The position numbers were made by a program, and so were the translations under genes. From assembly GCA_013585095.1 (NCBI GenBank), contig GCA_013585095.1_3039.1: 64,000 nt of DNA; one strand, given 5' to 3'. Source of the DNA: a phage. The notes below the pieces were generated by a model. The model saw only the letters and a program-made list of their open reading frames with translations. It made no database searches and was not told the origin of the DNA. Of the stretch, positions 17,051-44,403 are shown piece after piece (the stretch's first letter is position 1; every line of letters begins with the position of its first letter).

Positions 17051-17133
17051 AAAAAATTTTCACAAAACTGTTTACAAGACTGTTCTTCCATGGTACTATA
17101 CAACTATCAACTAATACGGATTTGGAGAATAAA
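17051..17133 (+). promoter_or_regulatory. early promoter plus conserved leader cassette (copy 1 of 5)
   Basis: AAAATTTTCACAAAACTGTTTACA, 17 bp, TACTAT -10, then leader ACAACTATCAACTA..GGAG..AAAATG; near-identical copies at 36363, 44328, 44840, 48137. Confidence 0.6.
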
Positions 17134-21358: not shown

Positions 21359-22786
21359 GTGGTAGAAATTATTCTTTCTCATCTTATATTTGATCAAGCT
21401 TATTTTTCAAAAGTTTGGCCATATATGGATTCAGAATATTTTGAAAGTGGTCCAGCTAAAAATACGTTCAAATTAATTAAATCTCATGTTAATGAGTATC
21501 ATAGCGTTCCATCTATTAATGCGTTAAATGTTGCATTAGAAAATAGTTCATTTACTGAAACAGAATATTCTGGTGTAAAAACACTTATTTCAAAACTGGC
21601 TGATTCTCCAGAAGACCACAGCTGGTTAGTAAAAGAAACAGAAAAATATGTTCAGCAAAGGGCGATGTTTAATGCTACGTCTAAAATAATCGAAATTCAA
21701 ACTAATGCTGAGCTTCCTCCGGAAAAACGAAATAAGAAAATGCCAGATGTAGGTGCTATTCCTGACATCATGCGGCAAGCATTATCTATTTCATTTGATA
21801 GTTACGTTGGTCATGATTGGATGGATGACTATGAAGCACGTTGGCTATCTTATATGAATAAAGCTCGTAAAGTTCCATTTAAACTCAGAATTCTAAACAA
21901 AATTACTAAAGGCGGAGCTGAGACTGGAACACTGAACGTTTTAATGGCTGGCGTTAACGTTGGTAAATCATTAGGATTGTGTTCATTAGCAGCAGATTAT
22001 TTACAGCTCGGACATAATGTTCTTTACATTTCCATGGAAATGGCAGAAGAAGTCTGTGCTAAGCGTATTGACGCTAACATGCTTGATGTTTCTCTTGATG
22101 ACATTGATGATGGGCATATTTCTTACGCTGAATATAAAGGAAAAATGGAAAAATGGCGTGAGAAATCTACCCTTGGTCGTTTAATCGTTAAGCAATATCC
22201 TACTGGTGGAGCAGACGCTAATACATTTCGATCACTTTTAAATGAATTGAAGCTCAAGAAGAATTTTGTTCCAACAATCATTATTGTCGACTATCTAGGT
22301 ATTTGTAAATCTTGCCGCATTAGAGTTTATTCAGAAAATAGTTACACAACTGTTAAAGCTATTGCAGAGGAATTGCGTGCTCTTGCTGTTGAAACCGAAA
22401 CTGTTCTTTGGACTGCAGCACAGGTTGGTAAACAAGCTTGGGATTCTTCTGATGTTAACATGAGCGATATTGCAGAATCTGCTGGTCTTCCAGCAACAGC
22501 TGATTTTATGCTTGCGGTCATTGAAACCGAGGAGCTAGCAGCTGCTGAACAACAACTCATTAAGCAAATCAAATCACGATATGGTGATAAGAACAAATGG
22601 AATAAGTTTTTGATGGGTGTTCAAAAAGGAAATCAAAAATGGGTAGAAATTGAACAAGATTCTACTCCAACCGAAGTGAGTGAAGTAGCAGGTTCACAAC
22701 AGATTCAGGCTGAACAGAATCGCTATCAAAGAAATGAATCCACTCGAGCTCAGTTAGATGCTTTGGCAAATGAATTAAAATTTTAG
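21359..22786 (+). CDS. 41: replicative DNA helicase gp41 (DnaB-like)
   Basis: 475 aa; Walker A GVNVGKS; GTG start after AAGGAG. Confidence 0.93.
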   Translation: MVEIILSHLIFDQAYFSKVWPYMDSEYFESGPAKNTFKLIKSHVNEYHSVPSINALNVALENSSFTETEYSGVKTLISKLADSPEDHSWLVKETEKYVQQRAMFNATSKIIEIQTNAELPPEKRNKKMPDVGAIPDIMRQALSISFDSYVGHDWMDDYEARWLSYMNKARKVPFKLRILNKITKGGAETGTLNVLMAGVNVGKSLGLCSLAADYLQLGHNVLYISMEMAEEVCAKRIDANMLDVSLDDIDDGHISYAEYKGKMEKWREKSTLGRLIVKQYPTGGADANTFRSLLNELKLKKNFVPTIIIVDYLGICKSCRIRVYSENSYTTVKAIAEELRALAVETETVLWTAAQVGKQAWDSSDVNMSDIAESAGLPATADFMLAVIETEELAAAEQQLIKQIKSRYGDKNKWNKFLMGVQKGNQKWVEIEQDSTPTEVSEVAGSQQIQAEQNRYQRNESTRAQLDALANELKF

Positions 22787-22815
22787 TTTACAAACTGACA
22801 AGACTATGGTATAGT
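22786..22815 (+). promoter_or_regulatory. early promoter with stem-loop, starts at the gene 41 stop codon
   Basis: TAG-TTTACA, 17 bp, TATAGT; 8-bp inverted repeat CAAGACTA/TAGTCTTG brackets the -10. Confidence 0.6.
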
Positions 22816-22844
22816 AGTCTTGTTGGTTAAATGAGGAGATTGTT

Positions 22845-23027
22845 ATGGAATTGGTAAAGGTAGTTTTTATGGGGTGGTTTAAGAATGAAAGCATGTTTAC
22901 TAAAGAAATCACAATGATGAAAGATGACGTTCAATGGGCTACTACTCAATATGCTGAAGTTAATAAAGCATTAGTTAAAGCTTTCATTGATGACAAGAAA
23001 GTGTGCGAAGTGGATTGCCGAGGATAA
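22845..23027 (+). CDS. dmd: Dmd-like protein (T4 61.5 position; antitoxin against RnlA/LsoA in T4)
   Basis: 60-aa ORF immediately downstream of gene 41 with GAGGAG SD; assignment by size and position only. Confidence 0.5.
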   Translation: MELVKVVFMGWFKNESMFTKEITMMKDDVQWATTQYAEVNKALVKAFIDDKKVCEVDCRG

Positions 23028-23288: not shown

Positions 23289-23318
23289 GTTTACTTTTGT
23301 TGGAAATTGAGATACTAT
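23289..23318 (+). promoter_or_regulatory. early promoter
   Basis: GTTTACT, 17 bp, TACTAT; then GAGGAG SD of next gene. Confidence 0.5.
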
Positions 23319-23346
23319 ATAAACATAAACTACTGAGGAGATTATC

Positions 23347-23640
23347 ATGAAAAAATTTATTTTTGCTACAATTTTTACTTTGGCTTCTTGTGCTGCTCAG
23401 CCTGCTATGGCAGGATATGATAAAGATTTGTGTGAATGGTCTATGACTGCAGATCAGACTGAAGTTGAAACTCAAATTGAAGCGGATATTATGAATATCG
23501 TTGAGCGTGATCGTCCTGAAATGAAAGCTGAAGTGCAAAAACAACTTAAGTCTGATGGTGTAATGCAGTATAATTATGTTCTGTATTGCGATAAAAACTT
23601 TAATAACAAAAATATCGTAACCGAAATCACAGGCGAATAA
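23347..23640 (+). CDS. sp: Sp (spackle)-like periplasmic protein
   Basis: 97 aa; 22-residue signal peptide MKKFIFATIFTLASCAAQPAMA; two Cys in mature part; assignment by size, signal peptide and position. Confidence 0.5.
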   Translation: MKKFIFATIFTLASCAAQPAMAGYDKDLCEWSMTADQTEVETQIEADIMNIVERDRPEMKAEVQKQLKSDGVMQYNYVLYCDKNFNNKNIVTEITGE

Positions 23641-27284: not shown

Positions 27285-27290
27285 ATTCAA

Positions 27291-27316
27291 GGACTCCTTC
27301 GGGAGTCCTTTTTTTT
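27291..27316 (+). terminator. rho-independent terminator
   Basis: GGACTCC-TTCG-GGAGTCC then TTTTTTTT. Confidence 0.85.
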
Positions 27317-27326
27317 CATTTAAATG

Positions 27327-27356
27327 GTTTACTTTCCAAAATGAGTATGGTATAAT
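27327..27356 (+). promoter_or_regulatory. early promoter
   Basis: GTTTACT, 17 bp, TGG-TATAAT. Confidence 0.65.
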
Positions 27357-29581: not shown

Positions 29582-29611
29582 GTTTACTTTCCTTTCTAAC
29601 GATGATATGAT
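29582..29611 (+). promoter_or_regulatory. early promoter
   Basis: GTTTACT, 17 bp, TATGAT; then GGAGG SD of next gene. Confidence 0.55.
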
Positions 29612-29637
29612 AGCTTCTGAAGTATACGGAGGCTATC

Positions 29638-30261
29638 ATGATTATTAATCCTGCAGATGTTGAACAGTTATCTATAAAAGCTGAAAGCGTTGATTTTCAA
29701 TATGATATGTATAAAAAGGTCTGTGAAAAATTTACTGATTTTGAGCAGTCTGTTCTTTGGCAATGTATGGAAGCAAAAAAGAATGAAGCTCTTCACAGAC
29801 AGTTGAATAAAATCATTAAAAAGCATTTAACTAAATCGCCTTATCAATTATATCGTGGTATATCAAAATCGACAAAAGAACTTATTAAAGATTTGCAAGT
29901 TGGAGAAGTGTTTTCAACGAACAGGGTAGATTCATTTACTACTAGTTTGCATACAGCGTGTTCTTTTTCTTATGCTGAATATTTCACTGAAACAATACTT
30001 CGTTTAAAAACTGATAAAGCTTTTAATTACTCTGACCATATCAGCGATATTATACTTTCTTCTCCTAATACTGAGTTTAAGTACACGTATGAAGACACTG
30101 ATGGATTAGATTCAGAGCGTACTGATAACTTAATGATGATTGTACATGAACAAGAATGGATGATTCCAATTGGAAAGTATAAAATAACTTCTATTTCAAA
30201 AGAAAAATTACACGATTCATTTGGAACATTTAAAGTTTATGATATTGAGGTAGTTGAATGA
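29638..30261 (+). CDS. modB: ADP-ribosyltransferase (ModB-like)
   Basis: 207 aa; R-S-E triad elements: LYRGI, STS, EQEWMIP. Confidence 0.65.
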   Translation: MIINPADVEQLSIKAESVDFQYDMYKKVCEKFTDFEQSVLWQCMEAKKNEALHRQLNKIIKKHLTKSPYQLYRGISKSTKELIKDLQVGEVFSTNRVDSFTTSLHTACSFSYAEYFTETILRLKTDKAFNYSDHISDIILSSPNTEFKYTYEDTDGLDSERTDNLMMIVHEQEWMIPIGKYKITSISKEKLHDSFGTFKVYDIEVVE

Positions 30262-34782: not shown

Positions 34783-34812
34783 GTTTACTTCCTCGGTTAG
34801 TTGTGGTATTAT
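34783..34812 (+). promoter_or_regulatory. early promoter
   Basis: GTTTACT, 17 bp, TGG-TATTAT. Confidence 0.6.
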
Positions 34813-34839
34813 AACACCATAGCTACTGAGGATAATAAA

Positions 34840-35343
34840 ATGAAAATTTATCGTGTTGAATCATCATTTAGTATTCTTAATTATGAAGATGCTATAACAA
34901 TACGTCGAGATCTTTGTGTTCAAATAACGCCATACAGGAGTATAATGGATTCATGGAGCGAAGAGTGGTTATTACACGTAGGTTATGACAGACCTAATTT
35001 TATGCATCATAGTAATGATAATAAAAGAATTCCTCTTCCGCACGAAGACAAACTATTAGTTAAAAATGCTAATATAGCAATTAATACTAATTTTGAGAAA
35101 GAAGAATATGTAGGCGTAGATCACTATATTCCAGGATGGTTTATAGCTCTTTATCATTTTGCTTTTGCTAGTGAATATGATATGATGAGATGGTTCACAC
35201 GAGAAGAGCGTGAAGAATTAGCTTCTAAAGGATTTTATCTTGCTGTATACGAAGTACCTGAAGATAAAGTTATCATTGGTGGGCATCAAGTAATGTTCCG
35301 TAAATCCCATGCCGAATTAAAAGGCTTTATTACCTTAGATTAA
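34840..35343 (+). CDS. hypothetical protein
   Basis: ORF-track 34801 (TTG) trimmed to ATG after GAGGA; 167 aa. Confidence 0.5.
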   Translation: MKIYRVESSFSILNYEDAITIRRDLCVQITPYRSIMDSWSEEWLLHVGYDRPNFMHHSNDNKRIPLPHEDKLLVKNANIAINTNFEKEEYVGVDHYIPGWFIALYHFAFASEYDMMRWFTREEREELASKGFYLAVYEVPEDKVIIGGHQVMFRKSHAELKGFITLD

Positions 35344-35353
35344 AGAGAAAATT

Positions 35354-35791
35354 ATGATTAAAAATAATGCTGTTTATCAATTGAAAAAATTTGATGAAAT
35401 TAAGAATTTTTCGGTACTGTCTAATACAGCTCATAATAAGTTTTGTGAACTTCTTGGTTTAACTGGCGGATATCCTTTTACTGTTATTAGTGTTAATAGC
35501 GGAATTCTTATCGGTATGATGTATATTGAAATTAGAAACTATTATGGAATGGTATCACCGCTTATTATTTATGAAAAAGATTTTAGTCTATTGACAGAAA
35601 TTGAAAAACCTGAAGATCCAACTGATCTACTGTGTAAGGCAGTTTATATTCGTCGTCCATTCGCGAATCCTGTGGGTGGATGGGTGACTGATCAGTGGAT
35701 TGAAGATGGTGTTGAACTTCTGAACGTAGTTCATGCTGGAGAGTACTCTGTAGTTCCTCGCAGCGCAGTGATTAATGTTCGTGTAAGCTAG
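35354..35791 (+). CDS. hypothetical protein, paralogous C-terminus to next gene
   Basis: 145 aa; C-terminal TDQWIEDGVELLNVVHAGEYSVVP. Confidence 0.5.
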   Translation: MIKNNAVYQLKKFDEIKNFSVLSNTAHNKFCELLGLTGGYPFTVISVNSGILIGMMYIEIRNYYGMVSPLIIYEKDFSLLTEIEKPEDPTDLLCKAVYIRRPFANPVGGWVTDQWIEDGVELLNVVHAGEYSVVPRSAVINVRVS

Positions 35792-35820
35792 TTTACAAAC
35801 TCTTGGGACCAGAGTATAAT
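35791..35820 (+). promoter_or_regulatory. early promoter with stem-loop, starts at upstream stop codon
   Basis: TAG-TTTACA, 17 bp, TATAAT; inverted repeat GGACCA/TGGTCC around the -10. Confidence 0.6.
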
Positions 35821-35864
35821 GGTCCTGCGGAGTATAAAATCTTTTTAACAAGTGAGAGATAACT

Positions 35865-36356
35865 ATGATTATTAATATTGGTGAATTAGCTCGTGTATCT
35901 GATAAATCCCGCTCTAAAGCAGCAGGAAAATTGGTCGAAGTTGTAAGCATTCAGCTTAAACACGGTGTTAAAGATGAAGATTCTGAAGTAAAAGTGCGTA
36001 TCATTCCTAAAGATGGAAAGTCTAAAACTCAGTTTGGCTATGTTCGTGCGAAATTTCTTGAATCTGCGTTTTTGAAAGCTGTTCCTGCTAAAGGAATTGA
36101 AACGATTGATACTTCGCATGTAGGTGTAGACTTTAAGTGGAAACTCGGTCAGGCTATTAAGTTCGTTGCTCCTTATGAGTTTGAATTTACTGAAGGTGAG
36201 GAAGGTGTTGTTAACCGTACTCGCGCTATGTGTGCATACATTACTGATCAATGGGTAGAAGATGGCGTTAAGTTATACAACGCGGTATTTTTAGGAACAT
36301 ACAAAGTCATTCCTGAAAGTTGGATTAAACACTACAGCAAAGCTCGCTATGCATAA
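35865..36356 (+). CDS. MotB-like protein (by size and position)
   Basis: 163 aa; C-terminal TDQWVEDGVKLYNAVFLGTYKVIP. Confidence 0.45.
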   Translation: MIINIGELARVSDKSRSKAAGKLVEVVSIQLKHGVKDEDSEVKVRIIPKDGKSKTQFGYVRAKFLESAFLKAVPAKGIETIDTSHVGVDFKWKLGQAIKFVAPYEFEFTEGEEGVVNRTRAMCAYITDQWVEDGVKLYNAVFLGTYKVIPESWIKHYSKARYA

Positions 36357-38265: not shown

Positions 38266-40083
38266 ATGATTAAGAATGAAATTAAAATTCTGAGCGATAT
38301 TGAACATATCAAAAAGCGTAGCGGCATGTACATTGGCTCTTCAGCTAATGAAATGCATGAGCGCTTTCTGTTTGGTAAATGGGAAAGTGTTCAGTATGTA
38401 CCTGGTCTTGTTAAGCTTATTGATGAAATTATCGATAACTCAGTAGATGAAGGTATTCGTACTAAGTTTAAATTCGCAAATAAAATTAATGTTACTATCA
38501 AAAACAATCAAGTAACAGTTGAAGATAACGGTCGTGGTATTCCACAAGCGATGGTTAAAACACCTACCGGTGAAGAAATTCCTGGTCCAGTTGCTGCTTG
38601 GACTATTCCAAAAGCGGGTGGTAACTTCGGTGATGATAAAGAACGCGTCACCGGTGGTATGAATGGTGTTGGTTCTAGTTTGACAAACATTTTTTCTGTG
38701 ATGTTTGTCGGTGAAACTGGCGACGGTCAAAATAATATTGTAGTTCGTTGTTCAAATGGCATGGAAAATAAATCCTGGGAAGATATTCCTGGAAAATGGA
38801 AAGGAACCCGTGTTACTTTCATTCCTGATTTTATGTCATTTGAAACTAATGAGCTGTCCCAAGTTTATCTTGACATTACACTGGATCGTCTCCAGACACT
38901 TGCTGTTGTTTATCCTGATATTCAATTTACCTTTAATGGTAAAAAGGTTCAGGGCAATTTTAAGAAATATGCACGACAGTATGATGAACATGCTATTGTT
39001 CAAGAACAAGAAAATTGTTCTATTGCGGTTGGTCGTTCACCGGATGGTTTTCGTCAGTTAACATACGTCAATAACATTCACACTAAGAATGGTGGCCATC
39101 ATATTGACTGTGTTATGGATGATATTTGTGAAGACCTCATTCCACAAATCAAGCGCAAGTTCAAAATTGATGTAACTAAAGCGCGTGTCAAAGAATGTTT
39201 GACTATCGTTATGTTTGTTCGTGATATGAAAAACATGCGATTTGATTCTCAGACTAAAGAGCGTTTGACTTCTCCATTTGGTGAAATTCGTAGTCATATT
39301 CAGCTTGATGCTAAAAAGATTTCACGCGCTATTCTAAATAATGAAGCTATTTTGATGCCAATTATTGAAGCTGCCTTGGCCCGTAAATTAGCAGCAGAAA
39401 AAGCAGCAGAAACTAAAGCAGCTAAAAAGGCTTCTAAAGCTAAGGTTCATAAACATATCAAAGCGAATCTTTGCGGTAAAGATGCTGATACTACTCTTTT
39501 CTTGACTGAGGGTGATTCTGCTATCGGATATCTTATTGATGTTCGTGATAAAGAACTTCATGGTGGTTATCCATTACGTGGTAAAGTTCTTAACAGCTGG
39601 GGTATGTCATATGCTGATATGCTTAAAAACAAAGAACTGTTTGATATTTGCGCAATCACTGGATTAGTTCTTGGTGAAAAAGCTGAAAACTTGAATTATC
39701 ATAATATTGCTATTATGACCGATGCTGACCATGATGGTTTAGGAAGCATTTATCCTTCTCTGCTCGGATTTTTTAGTAATTGGCCAGAATTGTTTGAGCA
39801 AGGACGAATTCGCTTCGTCAAAACTCCTGTAATCATCGCTCAGGTCGGTAAAAAACAAGAATGGTTTTATACAGTCGCTGAATATGAGAGTGCCAAAGAT
39901 GCTCTACCTAAACATAGCATCCGTTATATTAAAGGACTTGGCTCTTTGGAAAAATCTGAATATCGTGAGATGATTCAAAATCCAGTATATGATGTTGTTA
40001 AACTTCCTGAGAATTGGAAAGAGCTTTTTGAAATGCTCATGGGAGATAATGCTGACCTTCGTAAAGAATGGATGAGCCAGTAG
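38266..40083 (+). CDS. 39: type II DNA topoisomerase ATPase subunit, single fused gene 39 (equivalent to T4 39 plus 60)
   Basis: 605 aa continuous; GHKL ATPase motifs at N-terminus; ORF-track GTG trimmed to ATG. Confidence 0.92.
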   Translation: MIKNEIKILSDIEHIKKRSGMYIGSSANEMHERFLFGKWESVQYVPGLVKLIDEIIDNSVDEGIRTKFKFANKINVTIKNNQVTVEDNGRGIPQAMVKTPTGEEIPGPVAAWTIPKAGGNFGDDKERVTGGMNGVGSSLTNIFSVMFVGETGDGQNNIVVRCSNGMENKSWEDIPGKWKGTRVTFIPDFMSFETNELSQVYLDITLDRLQTLAVVYPDIQFTFNGKKVQGNFKKYARQYDEHAIVQEQENCSIAVGRSPDGFRQLTYVNNIHTKNGGHHIDCVMDDICEDLIPQIKRKFKIDVTKARVKECLTIVMFVRDMKNMRFDSQTKERLTSPFGEIRSHIQLDAKKISRAILNNEAILMPIIEAALARKLAAEKAAETKAAKKASKAKVHKHIKANLCGKDADTTLFLTEGDSAIGYLIDVRDKELHGGYPLRGKVLNSWGMSYADMLKNKELFDICAITGLVLGEKAENLNYHNIAIMTDADHDGLGSIYPSLLGFFSNWPELFEQGRIRFVKTPVIIAQVGKKQEWFYTVAEYESAKDALPKHSIRYIKGLGSLEKSEYREMIQNPVYDVVKLPENWKELFEMLMGDNADLRKEWMSQ

Positions 40084-40112
40084 TTTACTTTACCACAAGG
40101 ATGTGGTATAAT
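40083..40112 (+). promoter_or_regulatory. early promoter, starts at gene 39 stop codon
   Basis: TAG-TTTACT, 17 bp, TGG-TATAAT; inverted repeat CCACA/TGTGG in spacer. Confidence 0.6.
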
Positions 40113-40137: not shown

Positions 40138-40341
40138 ATGAAATCATATAGAGTAAATTTAGAACTTTTTGATAAAGCAGTTCATCGAGAATATAGAATC
40201 ATTCAACGCTTTTTCGATATGGGAGAAGCCGAAGAATTTAAAAACCGCTTTAAAGATATTAGAGATAAAATTCAATCCGACACTGCAACTAAAGATGAAC
40301 TACTAGAAGTTGCTGAAGTTATTAAGCGTAATATGAATTAA
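40138..40341 (+). CDS. hypothetical protein (T4 rIIA.1 position)
   Basis: 67-aa ORF with GAGGA SD. Confidence 0.5.
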
Positions 40342-44327: not shown

Positions 44328-44403
44328 AAATTTTTTCACAAAACGGTTTACATACCACAAGGACCGTGGTACTATTACCCTATCAACTACGGAGGAGCGG
44401 AAA
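44328..44403 (+). promoter_or_regulatory. promoter-leader cassette copy 3
   Basis: TTTTTTCACAAAACGGTTTACA, 17 bp, TACTAT, leader TACCCTATCAACTACGGAGGAG..AAAATG. Confidence 0.6.

Follow-up and report, generated by a model that had tools for sequence, protein, structure and literature searches.

The 64,000-nucleotide stretch of phage DNA analyzed here (contig GCA_013585095.1_3039.1 of assembly GCA_013585095.1; below, the window) contains three gene junctions at which the TAG stop codon of one gene runs directly into a T4-type early promoter of the next, with an inverted repeat embedded in the promoter itself. We refer to the junctions as site 1, site 2 and site 3, defined by the window position of the promoter G (22786, 35791 and 40083). 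The 3 kb around site 1 show 98-99% identity to a large number of Tequatrovirus genomes (vB_Eco_Solly, teqdroes, RB51 and others), and this similarity identifies the source of the window as a Tequatrovirus, that is, a T4-type phage. The + strand of the window is the direction of T4 early transcription. The genes that flank the three sites were confirmed by their matches to PHROG families (Table 1). At each site the following gene (dmd, motB or rIIA.1) begins 54-74 nt past the promoter G and on the same strand as the promoter. T4 (NC_000866) has the same three elements, behind genes 41 and 60 and in front of motB. The junctions of sites 1 and 3 are found at more than 95% identity in about 500 phage records each, and the site 2 query is found in about 450 records at 95% identity or more.

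Table 1. Genes, stop codons, promoters and inverted repeats at the three junctions, in window coordinates (ORF, open reading frame; SD, Shine-Dalgarno sequence).
Feature	Coordinates	Strand	Details
Gene 41 (DnaB-like helicase), 475 aa	21359-22786	+	phrog_19, E 1e-130
TAG stop of gene 41	22784-22786	+	its G is promoter -36; identical in T4
Site 1 early promoter (dmd-tifA)	22786-22815	+	GTTTACA; -35 at 22787-22792; TGG at 22807-22809; -10 TATAGT at 22810-22815; predicted start ~22822
Site 1 hairpin, 15 pairs including G.U	22793-22828	+	5' arm 22793-22807 in spacer; loop GGTATA 22808-22813; 3' arm 22814-22828
dmd, early gene 3' of site 1	22845-23027	+	phrog_2102, E 3e-39; SD GAGGAG at 22834-22839
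motB.1-like ORF, 145 aa	35354-35791	+	PHROG match
TAG stop of motB.1-like ORF	35789-35791	+	its G is promoter -36; in T4 and fPS-90 an earlier stop precedes the same TAG
Site 2 early promoter (motB)	35791-35820	+	GTTTACA; -35 at 35792-35797; -10 TATAAT at 35815-35820; predicted start ~35827
Site 2 hairpin, 13 pairs	35799-35833	+	5' arm 35799-35811; loop GAGTATAA 35812-35819; 3' arm 35820-35833; 1-base bulge at 35828
motB, early gene 3' of site 2	35865-36356	+	phrog_1671, E 4e-76
Fused gene 39/60 (topoisomerase II large subunit), uninterrupted, 606 aa	38263-40083	+	phrog_543, E 1e-295
TAG stop of gene 39/60	40081-40083	+	its G is promoter -36; identical at T4 gene 60 end
Site 3 early promoter (rIIA.1-rIIA)	40083-40112	+	GTTTACT; -35 at 40084-40089; TGG at 40104-40106; -10 TATAAT at 40107-40112; predicted start ~40119
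Site 3 inverted repeat	40091-40108	+	loop AGGA; in spacer, overlapping TGn and first two -10 bases
rIIA.1, gene 3' of site 3	40138-40341	+	PHROG match; followed by rIIA from 40352

Early promoters that begin in a stop codon

An earlier note on this DNA had described that the G of the upstream TAG is the first base of GTTTAC(A/T) at the three positions, and had taken these sites for T4-type early promoters; both statements are borne out here. The spacer between TTTAC(A/T) and the -10 box is exactly 17 nt at all three sites, the sigma-70 consensus is matched at 10, 11 and 10 of 12 positions (sites 1, 2 and 3, respectively), and sites 1 and 3 carry a TGn motif. In a consensus scan of the 22-41 kb region the three sites rank among the best sigma-70 matches, and the total of promoter-like hits in that region is not above that of shuffled sequence. 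Public annotations agree with this assignment. The record of the Yersinia phage fPS-90 has a predicted early promoter that begins on the last base of gene 41 and likewise one at site 2, and the record of phage ASO78A annotates a T4-type early promoter at site 1 together with a rho-independent terminator. The dmd-tifA genes were placed under an early T4 promoter by Srikant et al., citing Liebig and Rüger (1989) and Miller et al. (2003) (PMC9391042). In the T4 record one early promoter is named Pe133295 and the G of its GTTTAC lies at 133331; since GTTTAC occupies -36 to -31 according to Nolan et al. (PMC1524935), the start is expected 36 nt past the G, from which the predicted starts in Table 1 were derived. 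In the place of the A/T-rich UP element (-40 to -60), site 1 has a sequence (AATTAAAATTTTA) that is A/T-rich though coding, and sites 2 and 3 have ordinary coding sequence. Judged by sequence, the three sites are sigma-70-type T4 early promoters that have already been catalogued.

The overlap of the stop codon with the promoter was evaluated on 34 T4 early promoters, which we curated from 126 kb of the T4 genome. An upstream stop lies within 5 nt of the promoter G in 13 of them and within 20 nt in 20, including the promoter at 123093, where the stop is inside the promoter (+28). The dinucleotide TA precedes the G in six of the 34, and four of these six serve as stops. This is no enrichment over base composition, neither in T4 (6/34, p=0.14) nor among the window promoters (3/16, p=0.24). 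A TAG/-35 overlap kept by selection as a device of its own was therefore rejected, given that TA is not enriched and that the site 2 TAG stands behind an earlier stop in T4 and in fPS-90. The overlap of TAG with position -36 is an ordinary consequence of tight gene packing.

Hairpins embedded in the promoters

The perfect arms of the inverted repeats are ACAAGACTA (22798-22806) and TAGTCTTGT (22815-22823) at site 1, GGACCA (35806-35811) and TGGTCC (35820-35825) at site 2, and TACCACA (40091-40097) and TGTGGTA (40102-40108) at site 3, which give 9, 6 and 7 bp, respectively. Repeats had been reported at all three sites by the earlier note; the one at site 2 was given exactly, the 8-mer given for site 1 was one base off in range and its stem is really 9 bp, and the site 3 repeat, reported as 5 bp at 40092-40106, is really 7 bp and spans 40091-40108. 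The loop at site 1 contains TATA, the first four bases of the -10 box, and the loop at site 2 contains TATAA, its first five bases. Each helix has 3-8 G-C pairs, and the stems are otherwise AT-rich with several G.U pairs.

Folding of the + strand RNA gives a minimum free energy of -18.9 kcal/mol at site 1 (z score -5.6, with 0 of 200 shuffles as good) and -16.8 kcal/mol at site 2 (z -3.7, 1 of 200), and of -8.2 kcal/mol at site 3 (z -1.0, 34 of 200). The probability of the perfect stem is 0.0075 for the 9 bp of site 1, 0.069 for the 6 bp of site 2 and about 0.05 for the 7 bp of site 3. Sixteen GTTTAC promoters lie on the + strand of the window; a perfect stem of at least 6 bp is found in four of these (sites 1-3 and the promoter at 44346), and sites 1-3 hold three of the four lowest folding energies. 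The + strand folds better than the - strand by 7.4 kcal/mol at site 1 and by 4.0 kcal/mol at site 2, where the helices are lengthened by G.U pairs that exist on the sense strand only. An Rfam scan of the whole window at the gathering thresholds matched no family.

Conservation of pairing

For site 1, a family alignment of eight sequences was assembled from dmd promoters (including the versions of PST, HY01 and Pinarejo), a paralogue before mobD.2 and one Mosigvirus promoter. In this alignment 95% of the cells are paired and seven of the 15 pairs have changed on both sides, which none of 500 shuffles reaches. The mobD.2 paralogue (T4 57990) has the arms GTTGACAAGATTA/TAATCTTGTCAAC and the Mosigvirus member GGTAGGATTA/TAATCCTATC, and one pair of the family is A-U in T4, G.U in PST and G-C in HY01. 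A scan of IMG/VR with Dmd gave only five near-identical loci, which say little about covariation except for one with two pairing-preserving transitions.

The family of site 2 comprises ten sequences from Tequatro-, Gapriver-, Mosig- and Dhakavirus, taken from motB, ndd and other loci. Its 8-bp core is paired in 97.5% of the cells, and three of the eight pairs have changed on both sides, with swaps of C-G to G-C, A-U to G-C and G-C to A-U. Neither the observed pairing nor the covariation score was reached in any of 500 shuffles, and slid controls pair 34-57% of the cells. The motB promoters of the Gapriverviruses VR7 and DK-13 display the series A-U, G.U, G-C. Paralogues with the same -35, spacer start and loop have the stem GGGAGCA/TGCTCC in Mosigvirus pEB20, Dhakavirus FB and Tequatrovirus JK45, and a paralogue before ndd in Mosigvirus phi25-307 has the stem TGAGAGCA/TGCTCTCA. 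The compensatory changes, which extend across five genera and occur in orthologous as well as paralogous promoters, support the view that pairing is maintained by selection in the hairpins of sites 1 and 2, and this selection most likely acts on the sense RNA.

At site 3 the spacer motif CCACAAGGATGTGG also occurs at window position 44346, at T4 50973 and T4 167086, and in Jiaodavirus and Winklervirus promoters; in Serratia phage CHI14 it is found behind gene 41. Site 3 is a promoter of the same kind, and its short repeat is a shared spacer motif with an unproven structural role. The earlier note had proposed RNA folding of read-through transcripts and structure conservation in related phages as tests; the folding is significant and the structure conserved through compensatory changes at sites 1 and 2, and site 3 shows neither.

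A hairpin class among T4 early promoters

Hairpins of this type are also found at other T4 early promoters. The fold has a z score below -2 in 13 of the 34 curated promoters, where fewer than one would be expected, and below -3 in ten. Most of the hairpins with z below -2 have their loop centre about 24 nt past the G, which is the start of the -10 box. This class includes the promoters of ipI, ipII and ipIII, whose stem-loops were traced to Repoila et al. (1994) by the authors who described the promoter-early-stem-loop (PeSL) elements of T4-type phages (PMC2839356). Seventeen T4 promoters fold at -8 kcal/mol or below, and in 13 of them the sense strand has the greater stability (Wilcoxon p=0.003).

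The strength of the embedded hairpin is associated with the distance to the upstream gene. Its median is -9.9 kcal/mol where the upstream gene ends within 20 nt and -4.1 kcal/mol otherwise (one-sided Mann-Whitney p=0.014), and the association reaches p=0.0006 once the mobD.2 and motB promoters are reclassed as abutting, based on the PST and window ORFs. At the other end of the scale, eight of the ten T4 early promoters with an upstream gap of at least 39 nt are preceded by a canonical GC-rich hairpin with a T-run, located before the UP element. In Mosigvirus SHSML-52-1 and in Yersinia phage vB_YenM_P8, a canonical terminator separates gene 41 from the promoter that comes next.

Read-through RNA and the proposed function of the hairpins

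Based on the T4 start-site offset, the predicted starts fall within the 3' arm at sites 1 and 2 and beyond the stem at site 3. The mRNA made from the promoter would thus be unable to fold the hairpin, which could form only in RNA that reads through from the upstream gene. On balance, we favor the explanation that the sites are T4 early promoters which at sites 1 and 2 carry such read-through-only hairpins, and that these mark the 3' end of the upstream gene. Genes are packed so tightly that the previous ORF extends up to the promoter, and TAG, the only stop codon that ends in G, doubles as the conserved -36 G. At sites 1 and 2 the spacer provides the 5' arm, the loop contains most of the -10 box, and the 3' arm begins at the end of that box and reaches about +6/+7. 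Transcripts arriving from the upstream gene would fold the hairpin at the end of their cistron, where it may work as an attenuator or pause site and/or as a barrier to 3'-exonucleases. Such a hairpin would replace the canonical GC-rich, T-tailed terminator that is used where there is intergenic room. Because the promoter-plus-hairpin cores recur at many loci, they may in addition act as homology patches for the exchange of gene cassettes.

As to the function, a pause site, a partial attenuator or an exonuclease barrier seems more likely than a strong terminator. There is no U-run after the hairpin at any of the three sites (the tails are UGGUUAAAU, AUAAAAUC and UAAUUAAUU), and a terminator scan that looks for at least three G-C pairs and a T-run calls none of the three hairpins; given this and the AT-rich stems, efficient intrinsic termination is unlikely. 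An intrinsic terminator was rejected for want of a U-tract, despite a TransTermHP/WebGeSTer call at site 1 in MZ726795. A stem-loop effect on read-through has been reported for PeSL211/210 only, where the stem-loop lowered lacZ read-through in RB49/phi1 (PMC2839356).

The lack of a U-run is one of several observations that weigh against our explanation. The family alignments are small (eight and ten sequences) and mix orthologues with paralogues, and the C-G to G-C swaps would fit a DNA cruciform equally well. The folding energy of the site 3 repeat is compatible with chance, folding there is slightly better for the - strand than for the + strand, and no covariation was found: the relatives identified carry either the identical CCACAAGGATGTGG or a variant with a different loop. 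With no changes on both arms, conservation of structure and of sequence are inseparable at that site. The association with abutting genes was formulated post hoc, and Fisher's test gives p=0.09 on the unmodified T4 annotation and p=0.009 with the two corrections. About ten gene-abutting T4 early promoters have no significant embedded hairpin (z above -2), so the hairpin is not obligatory.

A more general reading, which we offer only tentatively, is that about one in three T4-type early promoters is dual-coded: a single stretch of 35-40 nt would serve as a promoter in DNA and as a selected, -10-centred hairpin in upstream-derived RNA only, and would insulate neighbouring early units as canonical terminators do, by definition or protection of 3' ends or by attenuation. 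This reading is implied by the published PeSL papers, which do not demonstrate covariation, strand bias or complementarity with terminators. If confirmed experimentally, it would account for the separation of neighbouring early transcription units in so compact a phage genome, and mutations of one arm together with compensatory mutations would be a concrete target for probing the role of the PeSL stem-loops.

Recombination and other explanations

One alternative is that the hairpins are kept mainly as DNA signals for recombination (excision, insertion or exchange of the genes they flank) and that any effect on RNA is secondary. Near-identical promoter cores of 35-50 nt do recur, both at loci that are not orthologous and between genera: the site 2 core at motB, ndd and others, the site 3 core after gene 41 in CHI14, and the site 1 core at mobD.2 and in Klebsiella phage MY02. 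Mosaic boundaries are also seen at the edges of the elements. The dmd allele of RB10 is about 75-80% identical to window 22831-23027 and has a 9-nt insertion, with flanks that are 96-100% identical, and its divergent segment extends from just after the hairpin, in the Shine-Dalgarno region, to the dmd stop. Similarly, Tequatroviruses form two classes that differ in the 22 nt before the site 2 TAG, and the BLAST alignments of one class begin at this TAG. In RB49/phi1, mini-circles formed from PeSLs have been shown (PMC2839356). The earlier note had suggested that these junctions be compared for insertion or deletion breakpoints, and the outcome is mixed: the RB10 dmd boundary and the 22-nt patch at site 2 speak for such breakpoints, and fPS-90 speaks against them. 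In fPS-90 a homing-endonuclease gene after gene 39 (segment L007, 36228-37160) has its breakpoint inside gene 39, and an intact rIIA.1 promoter (the -35 there is GTTTAT) is preceded by a second copy of the last 33 nt of gene 39, TAG included. Likewise, laboratory-selected amplifications of dmd-tifA used assorted microhomologies of 6-10 bp and not the promoter (PMC9391042), so the idea that the promoter serves as their junction is unsupported. Recombination by homology requires identity and not pairing, yet the arms covary; intermediates of the G.U type and a sense-strand energy bias would not be expected for a cruciform; and MY02 retains the promoter core without the 3' arm. A role of the elements in shuffling is plausible, although not specific, but as the main reason for the hairpins we consider it unlikely.

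Another possibility, which we judge a little less probable still, is that the inverted repeats have no function and arose by chance or as by-products of promoter families that were spread by duplication or gene conversion in AT-rich DNA. Site 3 taken alone would fit this well: its folding energy is matched by many shuffles, stems of at least 6 bp are present in 12% of random 42-nt windows of this sequence, its 3' arm is largely the TGn/-10 consensus, and all occurrences of CCACAAGGATGTGG are identical in sequence and thus represent one event. The folding z scores of sites 1 and 2, the excess of T4 promoters with z below -2, the multiple independent compensatory changes and a degree of pairing that no shuffle attained argue against chance.

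A further idea, somewhat more doubtful than the preceding one, is that the dyad around the -10 box modulates the promoter itself, either as a cruciform driven by supercoiling or as the binding site of a dimeric phage or host protein, for example in the shut-off of early promoters. Most of the strong hairpins are indeed centred near the -10 box, the mechanism of early-promoter shut-off was described as incompletely understood (PMC3014915), and T4 early promoters contain extra conserved information beyond the canonical elements (PMC2988021). However, the arm sequences are wholly different between families, which leaves no common operator, the perfect DNA stems of just 6-9 bp with 8-nt loops would extrude poorly, and the helices lengthen only via G.U pairs of the sense strand.

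Finally, it is very improbable that the hairpin gates downstream translation by hiding the ribosome-binding site in read-through RNA, so that only promoter-initiated mRNA is translated as in T4 e, soc, 49 and I-TevI: the architecture, with the promoter inside the 5' arm, resembles those cases (PMC3014915) and the principle is predicted at other early promoters of the window (29582, 34783 and 23289), but at sites 1-3 the Shine-Dalgarno sequence and AUG lie 6-30 nt beyond the helix, and translational gating of dmd, motB and rIIA.1 was rejected because the predicted accessibility of the initiation region is equal in read-through and promoter-initiated RNA (0.49 vs 0.47, 0.50 vs 0.42 and 0.62 vs 0.62, respectively).

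Related promoters and junctions

The early promoter at window 29582-29640 (GTTTACT...TATGAT) is predicted to follow the principle of e, soc, 49 and I-TevI with an early promoter. Its -10 box starts a hairpin of 14 pairs (29606-29640), the 3' arm of which covers the Shine-Dalgarno sequence GGAGG and the ATG (29638) of a modB-like gene, and the predicted accessibility of the initiation region is 0.21 in read-through RNA vs 0.65 in promoter-initiated RNA. Masking of the ribosome-binding site in read-through RNA only is also predicted for the promoter between dexA and motB.2 (34783-34842; 0.30 vs 0.66) and for that between tifA and sp (23289-23349; 0.28 vs 0.58). A 14-bp version of the masking hairpin, CTCCAGTAGTTG...CAACTACTGGAG, is present in Mosigvirus SHSML-52-1 (segment L013, 3966-4020).

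Several promoters of the window resemble each other beyond the consensus. Those at 17070 and 44853 share a near-identical spacer and downstream sequence (AAGACTGTTCTTCC(A/G)TGGTACTAT...), and so do those at 44346 and 40083 (TACCACAAGGA...), which points to families of promoters inside a single genome. Upstream of the early promoter at 27327, a soc-like ORF is followed by a bidirectional GC hairpin of the canonical type (AAGGACTCC TTCG GGAGTCCTT; 27289-27310) and a T-run.

Different genera have different promoter types behind gene 41. In CHI14 (segment L019, 247-290) it has a site-3-type core, ACCACAAGGATGTGGT, 4 nt after a TAA. In Mosigvirus (segment L013, 3500-3560) a canonical terminator is followed by a promoter, and two extra ORFs precede dmd.

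A variant of the site 1 core is present in MY02, a Marfavirus (segment L008, 1500-1532): the sequence from -35 to -10 is near-identical to that of site 1 (GTTTACAAGCTGATAAGACTATGGTATAGTA) and the 3' arm is absent. The upstream ORF has its stop just past the -10 box (TATAGTAA), and this stop is TAA to judge from the annotated end of the CDS.

The motB.1-like ORF upstream of site 2 has 145 aa in the window vs 119 aa in T4 (segment L001, 7291-7650), where one extra G causes a frameshift in motB.1 (GGATTGGAAG versus GGATTGAAG). Residues 79-141 of the window ORF match the MotB PHROG (E 3e-15), so motB.1 and motB have a C-terminal module in common. In fPS-90 the ORF upstream of site 2 (g011c) aligns with the window ORF over the last ~110 nt only and the remainder is unrelated. 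At site 3, the gene 39/60 fusion of the window is without the mobA/60.1 insertion of T4 and without the gene 60 bypass.

Comparison with known systems

Sites 1-3 are closest to the T4 early promoters (Liebig and Rüger, 1989; Miller et al., 2003; as cited in PMC9391042 and PMC2988021). They have GTTTAC at -36 to -31, the 17-nt spacer, TGn and a TATAAT-like -10 box before early genes, and they match the T4 promoters of dmd, motB and rIIA.1 at every or nearly every base, the only differences being strain-level substitutions. Two further differences are that the ORF upstream of site 2 uses the TAG in the window whereas T4 motB.1 stops earlier through a 1-nt insertion, and that the stretch which usually holds a non-coding, A/T-rich UP-element region is coding at sites 1-3, though A/T-rich at site 1. 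The DNA-hairpin promoters of the N4 type were dropped as a model, since sites 1-3 are ordinary sigma-70 promoters.

In T4 e, soc, 49 and I-TevI (PMC3014915) the 5' strand of the structure likewise contains the promoter or precedes it, and folding requires longer transcripts that start upstream. Those are late promoters at which the Shine-Dalgarno sequence and AUG are sequestered, whereas sites 1-3 leave the translation-initiation region free. Rho-independent terminators before T4 early promoters also form a hairpin directly behind the upstream gene, either just ahead of the next promoter or partly within it, and Mosigvirus and Yersinia phage P8 have a canonical terminator at this very position; unlike these, sites 1-3 have no U-tract, and their AT-rich stems contain G.U pairs.

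The comparison with PeSLs depends on the definition. Arbiol et al. (2010) described an upstream stop, a -35 box, a stem-loop between -35 and -10 or over the -10, a Shine-Dalgarno sequence and an ATG, with five positional classes of stem-loop, of which the -35/-10 interval or -10 overlap is the commonest in phi1/RB49 (PMC2839356). Sites 1 and 2 correspond to this loose definition, and site 3 weakly so: they combine a stop, a strong early promoter, a stem-loop in or near the -10 box and a Shine-Dalgarno sequence with ATG, they are repeated in the genome (the site 1 paralogue at T4 57990, the copies of the site 3 spacer, the site 2 paralogues in JK45 and pEB20). For an association with variable genes and mosaic breakpoints, the evidence described above points both ways. 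The stems of the RB49/phi1 elements, for which terminator activity and mini-circles were shown (PMC2839356), are of the G-run/C-run type and their promoters of the TTGACA type, whereas the embedded stems of the window are AT-rich and specific to each family. In the T4 and PST form (Comeau et al., 2014; PMC4122927) the stem-loops are drawn just upstream of the promoter and have AGNA...TCNT stems, whereas the stems of sites 1-3 lie inside the promoter and have other sequences. Canonical upstream hairpins do exist at other window promoters, such as the one at 27289-27310. The match with PeSLs proposed by the earlier note thus holds for the anatomy of 2010 and not for the T4/PST form. Both the elements and the concept are already known, the promoters as textbook T4 early promoters and the stem-loops under the published PeSL concept, and what is added here is supporting evidence from covariation, strand bias and the complementarity with canonical terminators.

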